Shown here: one piece after another, positions 38,401 through 44,400 of the stretch
How positions within the stretch are numbered: the first letter of the stretch is position 1
Layout of the letters: every line of letters begins with the position of its first letter
Source: an uncultured bacterium
GTDB lineage: Bacteria > Verrucomicrobiota > Kiritimatiellia > RFP12 > UBA1067
Direction of reading: 5' to 3'
Assembly: GCA_902764415.1 (NCBI GenBank)
Contig: CACWVU010000017.1
Span: 65,133 to 129,132, forward strand
Length of the DNA: 64,000 nucleotides
Position numbers: made by a program

Positions 38401-41400
38401 ATCGCCCGCGCCACCCTGCACAACGAGGACCAGATCGCGCGCCAGGACATCCGCATCGGCGACCACGTCTGGATCGTCAAGGCCGGGGACGTCATTCCCG
38501 CCGTCGACTCGGTCATACTCGAGAAGCGCACCGGCGCGGAGCGGAAGTTCGAGATGCCGGCGAAGTGCCCGGTCTGCGGCGGCGAGACGAAGCGCGCCGA
38601 GGGCGAGGTGGCCGTCCGCTGCGTGAACCCGGCCTGCGGCGCGCAGCTGCGGCGGCGGCTCGAGCACTTCGCCTCGCGCAACGCGCTCGACCTCAAGGCG
38701 CTCGGCGAGAAGGTGGCGGACGCGCTCGTCTCGTCGGGGATGGTGAAGGACCTCCTCGACCTCTTCTCGCTCGACCCCGCGGCGCTCGAGAGCCTCGACC
38801 TCGCCGAGGGCGCGGAGGAACCCGCCGGCGATACGGCTGAGCTGCTGCCCGGCTTCTCGCGCCCCACCCGCAAGTTCGGCCGCAACGCGCAATACCTCAT
38901 AAAGGCGATCGGTGAGGCGCGGACGCTGCCGCTCCACCGCTGGCTATTCGCCATCGGCATCCCCAACGTCGGGGTGACGGTGGCGAAGGACATCGCCGCG
39001 GAGCACGAAAGGTTCAGCGAGCTCGCCGGGAGCGCGGTCCTCAAGAACGTCGTCGAGAACGACGCGAAGAAAGGCAAGGAGCGCCTGATCCTGCCGATCA
39101 AGGTCGAGGCCGCCAAGGCGGTGCTCGCATTCTTCGAGAGCGACTACGGCCGTCGGTTTGCCGAGCGGATGGCCGCGCTCGGGATCGACCCGGTGTCGGA
39201 AAAGACGGCGCCGGCGAAGACCTCGGGCCCGCTCGCCGGCATGGGCTGCGTCCTCACCGGCACCCTTTCGCGCCCGCGCGGCGAGTACGCCAAGCTCATC
39301 GAGGCGGCGGGCGGAATCGTCCAGAGCGCCGTCACCTCGAAGACCCGCTACCTCATCGCCGGAGAGAACACCGGCGCCACCAAGACCGCCAAGGCGCGCG
39401 CGCTCGGCACCGAAGTGATCGACGAAAAGCGCCTCCTGGAGCTGCTCGGCTGAGCCGCCGCCGCGCCGTCACTCCATCATCGAGGACGGGATGAAGCACG
39501 AGGCGAGGGCGTGGTCGCGCACGATGCGCACGGTGACGCTGATGTCGCGCCCGCGGAAGGCCTTGAACGCCTCGGCCCAGGCGCCCTCCAGCCGCACGGT
39601 GACGACGCCGGCGTCGGGCTGGAAGCGGGTCACCACCATCTCGCGCGGCGAGTAGCGGATGCCGGTGCCGAGCGCCTTGGAGACCGCCTCCTTCGCGCAC
39701 CAGAACCGTACGAGCGCCCGCGAGGAGCTGGCGGCCTTGGCGGCGAGCTCGAGCTCGTCGGGGGTGAAGACGCCGACGGCGAACTCCTCCGAGAGGTCGC
39801 GCGAGACCGACTCCACGTCCACCCCCACCCGCGCGTTCGCCGCAGCGACGGCGACCACGAACTGCGAGGTGTGGGCGATGGCGATGTCGAGCTTGGTGGT
39901 GAGGAACTCGTTCCAGTCGCCGAGCGCGTGCGGCTTGCCGGAGTCGTCGGCCCAGATCTGGATGTCGGCGTCGGACCAGCGGGCCTGGTAGAAGTCCTTG
40001 AGGAACCTCCTTACCGCCTCCTTGGCCGCGATGCGCCCGAAGAGCCACTCCGTCCGCCGCGACACCGAGCCGGTCATCTCCTGGAAGTCCTTGCGCTCGG
40101 AGCCGCAGAGCACCAGCCGCGATACCATGCGCAGCCAGAGCTCCTCGTTGCGCTCGAAGATCTGGTAGGGAACGTCGGTCACGAACGCGGAGGCGACGTC
40201 GGTCGCCGGCGAGCCGAGCTGGTCGGGGTCGAGCGGGGCGGAGAGGTAGGTCATCGCCGGCTGCAGCACCAGCTCGTGGTATTCGCGCGGGATGCGCTCG
40301 GTGAGCTCCTCCCAGCCGGAGAACGCCGCGAGCTCATTGCCGTTGCCGTCCGTCATCGTGATGTCGCAGAGCTGGCTCTTCGGCGTCACTCCGGTGAGGC
40401 GCAGGTAGCAGTTGAGGCGCGAGCCCTCCTTGGGCAGTCCGCCGGAGAACACCAGCCGCCGCAGGCGGAACGGGAAGGAGAACGCGCCGGAGAGCCGCTC
40501 GTGGCTACGCCAGAGCGCGAAGCCGCTGACCACGGTCTGCATCAGGAGCGGATCCACCATCCACAGCGGGAAGCGGGTGAAGACGACGTTGTCCGCGACC
40601 GGCGGCACGACAACCTCGTAGTCGATGCCGGACTCGCTCCAGGCGGAGACGAAGGCGATGCCGCGCAGGCGGCGGCCGCAGCTGAGCCGCTGGGGGTAGA
40701 TGTCGCGACCCGACCAGTGCACCGAGCGCGGACGCGACAGCGGCGGCGGCGAGGCGGGGCGCGCCTCCGGCGGCGCGTCGGCGAGGACGACCGTCGCCTC
40801 CATCACCGGCCAGGTGTAGGCGGAGTTCGGCTTGTCGTCGCGGATCTGCACCTTCACCGCGAACTCGCCGGGGTCGGCGGAGGATATCCGCTCGGCGCGG
40901 ACGAAGAGCCTGAGCTCCCCCTTCTCGAAGGACACCATGCGCCGGCAGGTGAAGTCCTCGATCCGCCGCAGCGTGCGGTTGGGGGCGACGAGGCTGGCGG
41001 TCTCGGCCATCACCTCCGCCCCGACCGGCAGCGTCAGCAGCACCAGCCCCTTGAGGTTGGGGTCGGAATAGCTCAGCTGGCTCGTGCCCAGGGCGAAGTC
41101 GCCGAGGAACGGCAGCTCGGAGAGGCGGAACACCTTGGTGATCTCGACGGAGACGCCGGGGCTTGCGTCCACGGTGTCGGCGTCGGAGACGAGCGGGTTC
41201 ATCGCGCCGAAGTCGAACTGGCGCTGGCGCCGCGCCTGCTGGGCGATCGCCGCGGCGCGCTGCGCGGCCTTGGCGCCGCGCCCCTTGGGCTCGGCGAGGA
41301 ACGACGACCCAGCGAGCGCCGCGCCGTCGGTAAGCAGCGTCAGCCGCGGGAAGAGGCGCGAGAGGCGCATCTCGGACGCGTGCCGCACCTCGAGCGAAAG

Positions 41401-44400
41401 TGCGGAGTCGAAGTCGAGCTTCTTCGCGTGGCGGCGCTCGAAGAGCCGGGTGAGGTCCATCTCCGCGCCCAGCGACGCGAGGTAGCCGAGCGCGTGCTGC
41501 AGCTGCAGGGTGCCGGTGCGGTGGATGGAGTCGAGCGCGACCGCCGCGTGCTCCTCGCCGCGCAGCGTGTCGGCGACGGCGGCGGACATCAGCCCGCGCG
41601 GGCCGACCTCGAGGAAGACGCGGTAGCCGTCGGCGTGCATGCGGCGGACGGTCTCCGCGAACCTCACCGGCTGCGCCCAGCGGGAAGCCGCCTCCTCGCG
41701 CGCGTGCCGGAGGCGCGACGGCGCGCGGTCGGCGGTGGCGCAGGAGTAGACCTCGAGCTGGGCGTCGTGGCGCATGCGGCGGTCGGTGAACTTGCGGATC
41801 GCCGGCACCAGCCGCGAGCAGAGCGGGGTGTTGAACGGGCGATTCAGCTCCAGCGCCACCGCCCTCACGCCGGCGGCGGCGAAGGCGGCGAGCGCCTCGT
41901 CCTTGAAGTCCAGCGCCACCGCATAAGTCTTCTGGCGCGGCGAGAAGTCCACTACCAGCGCAAATCGCGCCGGCGGGAAGTTCGCCACGATGGGGTCGAT
42001 TTCGCCGGGGTGGCGCATCAGCACGGTGACCATCGCCACTTCCGGGAGTCCGCCGTGGTTGACCGCGCGGTCAACGATCGAGTAGATGTCGCGGATCATC
42101 TCCACCCTGTCGGCGCGGGACGGATTCGCGCCCGCGTAGCCGGCGCGCGTCATCGCCGCCAGGTCGCCGCCGGCGAAGCCGACAACCCCGTCGGGCGTGA
42201 CGCCGACGATCTTCATCAGCCGGGTGAGCGCGTCGCAGCCGGCGTAGGTGGAGACGAGCGCCTGCGCGTAGGCGCCGGACGAGAAGATGTCCGCGTCGTG
42301 GCGGTAGTACGGCGCAGGCGGGAAGATGAAGGACGAGGGGGTGAACTCGTTGTTGCCGGAAAGCGCCTCCTCCAGCTCGTCGAACGCCTGCCTGCACTCG
42401 GGGTACCTGACCGCGATGTCGCGGAGCATGTCGGGGTAGAACGAGAGGACCCCGGGGTAGACGAAGGCGAGCTTGCCGCAGCCCTCCCCGAGCATCCGGT
42501 CGCGCGAAAAGTAGGTGCCGCTCTTGTCCCGGATCCGCCGCGCCGCGCCAGAGGCGATCCGACTGCGGGCCGAGACGAGCCGCGCGCGGAGCGAGGCGAC
42601 GTCGTCGGCAATCACCGCCAGCCGCGCCGGGCCGCGGGTGAGCGAGCAGGTATAGGCGACGTCAAGGAACGGGACGTCGGGGACGCGGTCGAGAAACGCA
42701 ACCAGCCGGGCGATCTCCGCCAGCAGCGCCGCCTCGTCGGCGGCCGAGACTACCACCAGCTCCGTCATGCGCGGTCCTCCGGCTCCTCCTCGAGCACCAC
42801 CACGGCGGAACGCCCGGCCACGGACGTGGTCCCCACCGGATTGAGCGCGTCGAAGTTCGCGCCCATCACCACCGCGCGACGCGGCGACGAGCTGTCGCCG
42901 GTGATCCACGGCCGCACCGCGTCGAGCAGGTACGCGCTCGAGGCGAGGCTCGAGACCGACTCCGCCGGACGCTCCGGCGGCACCTGCGGCGGCAGCACGC
43001 GGTGACGGAGCGCCAGCACCGCCTTGGCGATGCCGGCGGACATCGCCGCGCGCAGCGTGTGGCCGATATTGCCCTTCACCGAGCCGACGCCGACGAGCGC
43101 GCCGCCGGGACGGTGCTCGCCCCAGACCCTGGCTATCGCATCGAGCTCGCGCGCCTCCGCCGCGGCAACGCCAGATCCGTCCGCCTCCACAAGCCCGATC
43201 GAGCGCGGCGGAATGCCGGCGCCCTCGGTCGCCTCCCGGAGAAGCGCCGACGGGTCGTCTTCGGGACAGTGCCCCAGCGCCACCGACCTGACGAGCGCGT
43301 AGATGCGGTCGCGGTCGCGCAGCGCGTCGGAGCGGCGCTTGAGGACGAAGAACGCGCCGCCTTCGCCGGGCAGGGTGCCGTCCGGGTCGCGCGAGAACGG
43401 CGTCAGCTCGGTCCGCCGCGAGAAGTCGATTTCGCCGGAGAGCCCCTCGATGTAGGCGCGGGAGAGCGGCGGCGTGAGCGCGCCGGCGAGCGCGACGTCC
43501 GCCCGGCCGGAAGCGAGGTCGTCCATCGCGTCGGCGATCGTCGCCGCGCCGGAGAGCAGGCCTGCGTCCATGATCGTCGCCGAGCCGGCGAACGAGCATT
43601 CGCGAGCGATCCAGGAGACGAAGCGGTAGCCGGTGCCGAGCAGGAACGAGGCGGCGTCGGGAAGCGGCAGCGACTCCACGAGCTTCTCCTTCACCGCGTC
43701 CATAGCCTCCTCGGGCGCGCTCGGGAAGAACCGCCTGATCACCTCCATCGTCTGGTCGAGGAACGAGGTGTGCTGGAGCCAGTTGACCGTCGAGGCGTTG
43801 AACGGCGGCGCGTAGCCGAGGCGCACGGTGCCGCGGACGGGGTCGGGCGAATGCGGCTTCATCGAGGCGTCGCAGAGCGCGTCGAAAGCAATCTGGGTCG
43901 CGAAGTAGAGGTCCTGGTTCTCGCCGATGTTCACCTGGCGCGGGAAGTTCTGCATCGCCGGGACACAAGAGAAGAGGTCGCCGAGCTGCCCGATGCGCTG
44001 CGGGTACGGCCGGTCGAAGAAGTTCTTCTTGCCGACCGGCAGCTCCGCCTCGGGTCCGGGCTGGGTGAGCATCACGCGCCGACCGAGGATCGCGTTCCAG
44101 AACGCGCCGGGGCCGGGGCATCCCGCGAAGCGGCAGGACATCCCGACAATCGCGATCGGATCGCTATGGCTTTGCACCGCGGCCACGGGAAGTTTACTTG
44201 AGGGTGATCGTGAACGGACCGAGCGGGAGCGACGCCTGGTTGTACATGACGCCCATGGTGCGGTCCTTGCCGAGGTAGCGCGCCATGACCGGCTCCTTCA
44301 CCTTCTCGCTCCTGAGGCTGAGCTGCGGGTGGTCGATGAGCCCGAGCGTCTGCCAGGGCTTGAACGACTTGCCGCAGTCGACGAGCTCCGCCGCCTCCCA

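Follow-up and report, generated by a model that had tools for sequence, protein, structure and literature searches.

Two adjacent genes of an uncultured Kiritimatiellia bacterium (assembly GCA_902764415.1) were analyzed in a 64,000-nucleotide stretch of contig CACWVU010000017.1, referred to here as the window. They encode a ketosynthase (KS)-like protein and a second protein that combines acyltransferase (AT)-like and dehydratase (DH)-like regions with a C-terminal Sfp-type phosphopantetheinyl transferase (PPTase, or PPT as a domain). The pair looks like a working enzyme on an enzyme fossil. Judged by sequence comparison, it is part of a monophyletic, degenerate Kiritimatiellota clade that lies inside a catalytically intact family of Pfa-type synthase subunits, and its remaining chemistry is almost certainly phosphopantetheinyl transfer. 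The interpretation favored here, with slightly better than even confidence, is that the two proteins act as a holo-carrier-protein synthase that serves primary metabolism in trans and is built on a KS/AT/DH scaffold without catalytic function.

Catalytic Residues of the KS-, AT-, and DH-Like Regions

The KS-like protein matched both Pfam KS models above their gathering scores (N-terminal domain PF00109, 3.9e-18, 66.4 bits; C-terminal domain PF02801, 4.7e-22, 78.7 bits), as expected for a thiolase-type KS fold, and its nearest NCBIfam model was TIGR02813 (PfaA). In HMMER alignments to solved polyketide synthases (PKSs), the Cys motif FDTACSS reads IMDAGLLS (Cys to Leu210), the first His motif EAHGTGT reads EADGSGV (His to Asp336), and the second His motif KSNMGH reads KGNIGH, with His376 kept. 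The Cys-His-His triad of a competent type I KS is thus represented by Leu210, Asp336, and His376. Among 67 gut orthologs the Cys position was occupied by M, L, I, A, or N and never by Cys, the first His was Asp in 66, and the second His was present in 64. The Cys was also absent from all 39 metagenome orthologs, in which the position was mostly G, A, T, S, or E.

The second protein begins with a CurL-like KS-AT linker (Pfam 8.5e-08; the CurL-like/RhiE-like linker match spans residues 4–66), and the point at which the two genes are split is the exact KS/linker boundary. The AT-like region matched Acyl_transf_1 (PF00698) at 2e-09, with 37.8 bits against a cut-off of 32.7. In the same kind of alignment GQGSQY reads GVLSFY, GHSVGE reads GFAGGD (His to Phe198, Ser to Ala199), and AFHS reads PFNT (His to Asn313); the GHSxG dyad, the GQGSQ loop, and the AFHS His are all replaced. 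Of 80 orthologs, 78–79 have a residue at the sites of the two His; none of them has the first one, and the AFHS His was Asn in 79/79.

Structure prediction agreed with these assignments. A first full-length AlphaFold model, built from a shallow alignment, gave high confidence in the linker and AT but poor confidence in DH and PPTase. Residues 1–460 reached a predicted local distance difference test score (pLDDT) of 85–95 and matched KS-AT(-DH) PKS structures in Foldseek, and the AT-like part matched isolated AT structures with template modeling (TM) scores of 0.75–0.8, as an AT fold with flanking linkers would. A second model, covering residues 530–1099 with a deeper alignment, resolved the DH/PPTase confidence (pLDDT 90.8, predicted TM score 0.88). 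The PS-DH match in Pfam (2.6e-04) was under the gathering score, and the DH fold was confirmed by structure comparison: the model matched the CurJ, CurH, and MlnB dehydratases (E = 2e-15, TM 0.65–0.79), which have the double-hotdog fold. The top Foldseek match of the residues 530–1099 model was CurJ H978F, an engineered inactive DH mutant. The catalytic His position is Phe558 in this protein and was never His in 80 orthologs, whereas the second catalytic position keeps Asp739 in this genome and is Asn in 72/80 orthologs.

No Pfam match to an acyl carrier protein (ACP) or ketoreductase (KR) was found in either protein. A cryptic ACP in residues 441–530, around “LDFDS” (451–455), was considered and rejected, since this region is the post-AT linker and its Ser varies between S and A among orthologs. 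Residues ~430–555 were compared with the ACP profile of the related active family and gave an hhalign probability of 0.2%. The post-AT region aligns contiguously with ACP-less active relatives such as P0145.

The PPTase Domain

The C-terminus of the second protein matched Pfam ACPS (PF01648, 4.5e-17) and the PPTase domain model TIGR00556, with 62.9 bits against a cut-off of 45.35. Residues 885–974 and 978–1093 each align to AcpS structures, which gives the domain its two lobes. The motifs GKP945, IAHT966 (His966), VGVDVE986 (D984/E986), and FWCAKEAVSK1031 (K1026/E1027/K1031) correspond to the Sfp-type set G(K/R)P, xxSH, GxDxE, and WxxKEAxxK. This set was intact in 80/80 gut orthologs, and each of the 13 representative clusters that make up the degenerate clade has kept the PPTase residues. 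The Asp-Glu-Lys-Glu residues were also intact in ~62 metagenome loci, bar two (one DEKD, one cut off). At deep divergence PPT is the best-kept domain, with 50% identity versus 31–39% for AT.

A preliminary description of this region had reported the two minus-strand genes, coupled through an ATGA overlap, as a split KS and AT-DH-PPTase module without ACP or KR, in which the catalytic residues were replaced and the PPTase looked functional. Inspection of the open reading frames (ORFs) and of the sequence placed both genes, and their overlap, as described. The Cys-to-Leu and His-to-Asp changes in the KS, the AT motifs GVLSF, GFAGG, and PFNT, and the Phe at the DH His position fell in the same register in residue-level alignments to solved PKSs. 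The absence of ACP and KR stood up to Pfam and to the sensitive profile comparison, the structure prediction and Foldseek search that had been proposed recovered the AT and double-hotdog DH folds, and the PPTase motifs were all present here and in the 80 orthologs. One qualification applies: the KS Leu is correct for this genome but is not a fixed state, as the position is hypervariable among orthologs.

Conservation and Selection

The second protein has more than 120 homologues that are full-length (1097–1124 aa) and 68–77% identical, those with names being Kiritimatiellae. When one genome was scanned for each GTDB species, full-length orthologs turned up in at least 145 species, and the best 80 matches were all animal-gut Kiritimatiellae metagenome-assembled genomes, at 51–99% identity. 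Bin contamination or mislabelled records probably account for four pair-bearing contigs (L033, L046, L060, and L079) that are filed as “cleanbin” assemblies of Muribaculaceae, Faecalibacterium prausnitzii, Alistipes onderdonkii, and Lachnospira hominis.

The second gene is immediately preceded by the KS-like gene in 67/83 gut-clade loci, a set that includes three near-identical copies of the window, and the split between KS and AT-DH-PPT is kept in these loci and also in distant relatives, as the preliminary description of a split module would have it. About half of the ortholog pairs share the ATGA overlap, and the rest have gaps of 0–30 nt with a single exception of 92 nt. An origin of the split in a frameshift or an assembly error was rejected, because the same arrangement (ATGA or short gap) is found in the 67 gut loci, in 39 metagenome loci, and in active relatives. 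A 1550-aa ORF at 39469..44121 was also discarded as a high-GC read-through artefact; it runs in another frame than the KS, and its upstream part is Arg/Pro/Ala-rich nonsense.

No internal stops were found among the orthologs checked, 67 KS orthologs included. The ratio of nonsynonymous to synonymous substitution rates (dN/dS), calculated pairwise for 15 pairs at 83–96% identity, was 0.02–0.22 per domain and 0.05–0.15 overall. Taken domain by domain it came to 0.03–0.16 for each of KS, linker, AT, DH, and PPT, and the dead domains were constrained like PPT. The GC content of the pair is that of the genome backbone. The whole PKS-like module (KS, AT, and DH) has lost its catalytic function and is under strong purifying selection, either on account of its one surviving domain or alongside it, and would be an unusually clean example of pseudoenzyme evolution.

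Distant degenerate relatives, at 33–64% identity, were recovered from metagenomes; the named ones belong to Kiritimatiellia or Kiritimatiellaeota, plus one to Lentisphaerae. The catalytic losses are mosaic across the lineages of the degenerate clade. The gut clade has lost the AT dyad, the KS Cys-His-His triad survives in two more distant lineages (L086 and L092), and the DH His is absent from all degenerate-clade clusters, gut orthologs, and metagenome relatives checked.

Relationship to Active Pfa-Type Subunits

An exhaustive HMMER search returned 818 representative clusters at E ≤ 1e-30 that were homologous over the full length at ~30% identity, and the best 150 of those matches had E-values of 1e-82 and below. 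Most of these relatives are fused KS-AT-(ACP)-DH-PPT proteins of 1550–1990 aa, or split forms of 1100–1400 aa. The domain order is the same as in the pair, and both ACP-less proteins (~1650 aa) and a split into KS and AT-DH-PPT occur among the active members. These keep PGEGSQY, GHSxGE, YHTP, DHTLG, and, in 169/172, the KS Cys-His-His triad, whereas the pair of the window lacks them. Active relatives were found in Poribacteria, Acidobacteria (Blastocatellia), Chloroflexi (Caldilineae), Deltaproteobacteria, and on a Rhodobacteraceae plasmid; a plasmid collection yielded distant active relatives only.

The active subunits are encoded in a cassette in the order ~2780-aa megasynthase of enoylreductase (ER)-KS-AT-KR organization, KS-AT-(ACP)-DH-PPT subunit, ~100-aa ACP, PF01663 phosphodiesterase, and alpha/beta hydrolase. 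The megasynthase, which is PfaD-PfaA-like, scores above the PfaA model cut-off. This context is fixed in active members, whereas the pair of the window has housekeeping flanks instead. The pair shares full-length homology and domain order with Pfa-type subunits, but neither the cassette context nor the active residues. In five cassette loci (L084, L085, L088, L089, and L093) the tailoring genes vary and include short-chain dehydrogenases/reductases, a sulfotransferase, a glycosyltransferase, methyltransferases, and radical S-adenosylmethionine (SAM) enzymes. This cassette with an integrated PPTase is apparently widespread over several phyla and uncharacterised, and the present analysis exposes it as a large family.

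In a neighbor-joining tree, the degenerate forms of ~1100 aa made up one clade of 13 representative clusters, all without the DH His. Its sister group comprises split proteins in which AT and DH are active. In some members of the sister group (P0139, P0164, and P0202) it is the PPTase Asp/Glu or Lys/Glu that has been lost instead, the reverse of the pattern in the window.

The active relatives have no KR, which marks them as Pfa-type and not as enediyne PKSs (PKSEs). Accordingly, of the “enediyne/PUFA-type” ancestry that had been proposed for the pair, the polyunsaturated fatty acid (PUFA, Pfa-type) half was upheld, as the partner megasynthase passes the PfaA cut-off, and the enediyne half was not. 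An ancestry in the enediyne PKSEs was not supported by similarity either, since the AT of DynE8 ranked only 49th in Foldseek and PKSEs were absent from the top sequence matches.

Association With panB

The sole functional association found for the pair was with panB, the ketopantoate hydroxymethyltransferase gene (357 bits to its own Pfam model). It lies 1–25 nt upstream of the KS gene in ~32/39 environmental Kiritimatiellia loci, the 39 being those with a complete KS and enough flank. The panB step commits carbon to pantothenate and, through coenzyme A (CoA), to 4′-phosphopantetheine, the donor group of a PPTase. The panB linkage strengthens the proposed role of the dead domains as a pseudoenzyme scaffold for the PPTase.

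The other flanks, in gut and environmental loci, are variable housekeeping genes. In the window the pair ends a housekeeping operon, purA-cdsA-...-ispF-SASA-KS-ATDHPPT, and ligA follows on the opposite strand. A 264-aa radical-SAM gene lies directly downstream on the same strand in 28 gut loci (e.g., L010 7736–8530) and is absent from the window, and an Exo_endo_phos gene follows the pair in 11 environmental loci. The co-orientation with the esterase (SASA) and ispF genes that had been pointed out is correct for the window but does not hold as a conserved context, as the esterase stands beside the pair only in the closest relatives. Both genes were rejected as functional partners, being neighbors of the pair only in near-identical relatives. 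The SASA-like esterase gene seems to have been inserted recently, between ispF and the pair.

The searches for AcpS, carrier proteins, and synthases covered the locus neighborhoods. In ~170 Kiritimatiellota loci with flanks of 6–10 kb, no megasynthase, ACP, phosphodiesterase, or hydrolase of the Pfa-type cassette was found. No AcpP or AcpS homologues adjoin the pair in neighborhoods of ~20 kb, save distant tandem ACPs in two gut species: two ACP genes ~8 kb downstream of the pair in L027 (20972–21479) and L083 (21497–22004), matching PF00550 with 33.5/55.2 bits. Their products are candidate substrates of the PPTase besides AcpP.

Proposed Function and Alternatives

A holo-carrier-protein synthase on a non-catalytic scaffold could have arisen as follows. 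The ancestor of the pair is the KS-AT-(ACP)-DH-PPT protein, the second subunit in Pfa-type synthases of secondary lipids, and the ancestral PPT domain would have activated the carrier proteins of partner subunits in trans. The remaining synthase cassette is gone from the Kiritimatiellota locus. The DH His was lost clade-wide, the KS Cys outside the two distant lineages that keep the triad, and the AT Ser/His dyad in most lineages, that of the window included, and the PPTase was kept. In the present-day proteins, the linker-AT part of the second protein may join the KS-like protein to rebuild a KS-AT-didomain-like body, with the dead KS, AT, and DH domains as a structural or ACP-docking platform. 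The PPTase would move 4′-phosphopantetheine from CoA onto apo-carrier proteins that serve primary metabolism, the AcpP of fatty-acid synthesis being the most plausible of them.

Some findings weigh against this proposal. The motifs that replace the catalytic ones are invariant (GFAGGDLAA, RPFNT, and PPAPYYRHDADI), which is tighter constraint than a passive scaffold would evidently call for and makes a new function in binding or regulation conceivable. In one environmental subclade the GHS/His residues of the AT are still present. The panB adjacency is absent from the gut clade, to which the pair of the window belongs. Finally, ~10 gut species have no KS gene in ~2–10 kb upstream of the second gene, and thus the KS partner may be unlinked or dispensable there. 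The gut loci without an upstream KS-like gene are L017, L035, L046, L049, L060, L064, L066, L070, and L071; in a group of ~61% identity among the KS-less loci, a 572-aa ORF is found upstream in place of the KS.

A more elaborate form of the proposal, put forward tentatively and held with clearly less confidence than the scaffold role, is that a PPTase embedded in a fossil Pfa-type module carries out the essential activation of ACP phylum-wide, and that the dead body recruits apo-ACP or senses CoA, acyl-CoA, or acyl-ACP, coupling activation to CoA supply. If true, a pseudoenzyme-regulated PPTase that couples a panB operon to carrier-protein activation would have no described counterpart.

The strongest alternative, although an unlikely one, is that one or more of the dead domains have gained a new ligand-binding or catalytic role (for example as sensors of CoA, acyl-CoA, or acyl-ACP, or in acyl transfer of a non-canonical kind). 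This would make the pair a regulator or an enzyme of its own, and the PPTase would be one of two activities. The replaced motifs are invariant and not drifting, KS Asp336 (66/67) and His376 (64/67) among them, AT, DH, and KS match PPT in their low dN/dS, some relatives keep the AT GHS/His residues or the KS triad, and the panB operon ties the pair to CoA supply. However, the KS nucleophile position (M/L/I/A/N/G/T/S), the AT Ser (A/V/S/G), and the DH His (F/Y/S/C) all vary, no alternative conserved nucleophile was seen at the KS, AT, or DH sites, and mosaic losses fit relaxed catalysis and not one new chemistry.

Somewhat less probable again is that the pair supplies a non-catalytic, chain-length-factor-like partner and a dedicated PPTase to a synthase encoded elsewhere in the genome. 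In the ancestral family the working partners are a PfaD-PfaA-like megasynthase and a stand-alone ACP, PKS and PUFA synthases commonly include KS partners that are inactive, and two gut loci have tandem ACP genes 8 kb downstream. Against this stand the lack of cassette genes in the flanks of the ~170 Kiritimatiellota loci, the variable housekeeping genes found there, and the fact that a module without KS, AT, and DH chemistry contributes nothing catalytic.

That the genes are decaying pseudogene remnants of an imported PKS gene, as the loss of several catalytic residues in three domains might suggest, has a negligible probability: stop-free orthologs and low dN/dS rule out pseudogenes, full-length orthologs extend over at least 145 species down to 51% identity, GC matches the backbone, and translational coupling is conserved. 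The ortholog and selection test that had been recommended, which found the substitutions conserved, and the housekeeping neighbors of the pair agree with the earlier view that it is not a decaying import.

The favored reading of the pair as a carrier-protein synthase on a dead scaffold also has consequences for annotation. The two proteins are annotated by PGAP and by genome-mining tools as “acyltransferase domain-containing,” “polyketide synthase dehydratase domain-containing,” or “PPTase superfamily,” and with such labels the pair may be mistaken for biosynthetic potential when Kiritimatiellota of the gut and the environment are surveyed. The results suggest that it makes no polyketide. If this PPTase is the sole one in these genomes, it would be a phylum-specific essential enzyme of odd architecture, and one in which the role of non-catalytic megasynthase domains could be tested.

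Comparison With Described Systems

The enediyne PKSE is an iterative type I PKS with the organization KS-AT-ACP-KR-DH-PPTase, in which a C-terminal Sfp-type PPTase follows the DH. It shares this last arrangement with the second protein of the pair, but it is one polypeptide with active domains, ACP, and KR, whereas the pair is split, has no ACP or KR, and has lost its catalytic residues.

KS folds without the Cys nucleophile or the His are kept as partners in the chain-length factor/KSβ, in KS0 of trans-AT PKSs, and in KSQ. Structures of GfsA KSQ-AT were among the sequence and Foldseek matches of the pair. These proteins work inside active synthases, KSQ with a conserved Gln, whereas in the pair the Cys position is hypervariable and the AT and DH are dead too.

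Single Sfp-type PPTases serve primary metabolism in bacteria lacking AcpS, as PcpS does in Pseudomonas aeruginosa. The two-lobed Sfp-type domain is the same, and the activation of AcpP is the role proposed for the pair. PcpS-type enzymes are stand-alone proteins of ~240 aa, whereas the PPTase of the pair is the C-terminus of a pseudo-PKS protein of 1099 aa, and the pseudo-KS partner is a separate protein.

For an integrated Pfa PPTase there is one precedent in the literature, the PPTase fused to PfaC in Pseudoalteromonas sp. DS-12 (PMC3098273). The PPTase is likewise fused to a megasynthase in the alpha subunit of fungal fatty acid synthase (FAS), whose structure PDB 4v58 matched the second protein. 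Both fungal FAS alpha and DS-12 PfaC are active megasynthases in which the PPTase serves their own ACPs, whereas the KS, AT, and DH of the pair are dead. A literature search on this architecture, on Kiritimatiellota PPTases, and on pseudo-PKS/PPTase fusions gave nothing relevant. Inactive PKS domains and integrated PPTases are known kinds of thing; what stands out here is the complete catalytic loss, the phylum-wide conservation, and the coupling to panB.

Coordinates and Other Features of the Window

The positions of the two genes, their domains, and the residues discussed above are collected in Table 1, together with the adjoining esterase gene.

Table 1. Features of the KS-like/PPTase gene pair and the adjoining esterase gene (positions in the window; residue numbers of the encoded proteins).
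Feature	Position	Strand	Details	Basis
KS-like gene	42765..44186	−	473 aa, GTG start	Pfam KS domains; alignment to MAS and trans-AT PKS KS
Leu210 at KS active-site Cys position	43557..43559	−		Alignment
Asp336 at first catalytic KS His position	43179..43181	−		Alignment
His376, second KS His, kept	43059..43061	−	KGNIGH	Alignment
Stop/start overlap, KS-like gene to second gene	42765..42768	−	ATGA (...gcATGAcgg)	
Second gene	39469..42768	−	1099 aa; KS-AT linker, AT-like, post-AT linker, DH-like, PPTase	
KS-AT linker	42484..42768	−	Residues 1–95	Pfam CurL-like_PKS_C and RhiE-like_linker; AlphaFold (AF2) pLDDT ~90
AT-like domain	41449..42483	−	Residues 96–440	GVLSF, GFAGG, PFNT
AT Phe198/Ala199	42172–42177	−		
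AT Asn313	41830–41832	−		
Post-AT linker/interdomain region	41179..41448	−	Residues 441–530; not ACP	
Double-hotdog DH-like domain	40189..41178	−	Residues 531–860	AlphaFold (AF2) and Foldseek
DH Phe558 at catalytic His position	41095–41097	−		
Sfp-type PPTase domain	39472..40188	−	Residues 861–1099	Pfam ACPS, TIGR00556, AcpS alignments
PPTase D984/E986	39811–39819	−		
PPTase K1026/E1027	39688–39690	−		
SASA-family esterase gene, upstream of KS gene	44194–45774	−	526 aa	PF03629, 50.4 bits

Additionally, two low-GC islands were observed in the window, at 7700–13200 and 54000–56100, with a GC of 0.46–0.49 versus ~0.68 for the backbone. The ORFs at 8507–9862 and 10877–12541, in the first island, had no Pfam match. 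Those at 54053–56058 showed weak CarboxypepD_reg matches and adjoin a gene for a 1454-aa TSP3-repeat protein at 56055–60419. The genes of these islands are probably horizontally acquired surface or cell-envelope genes.

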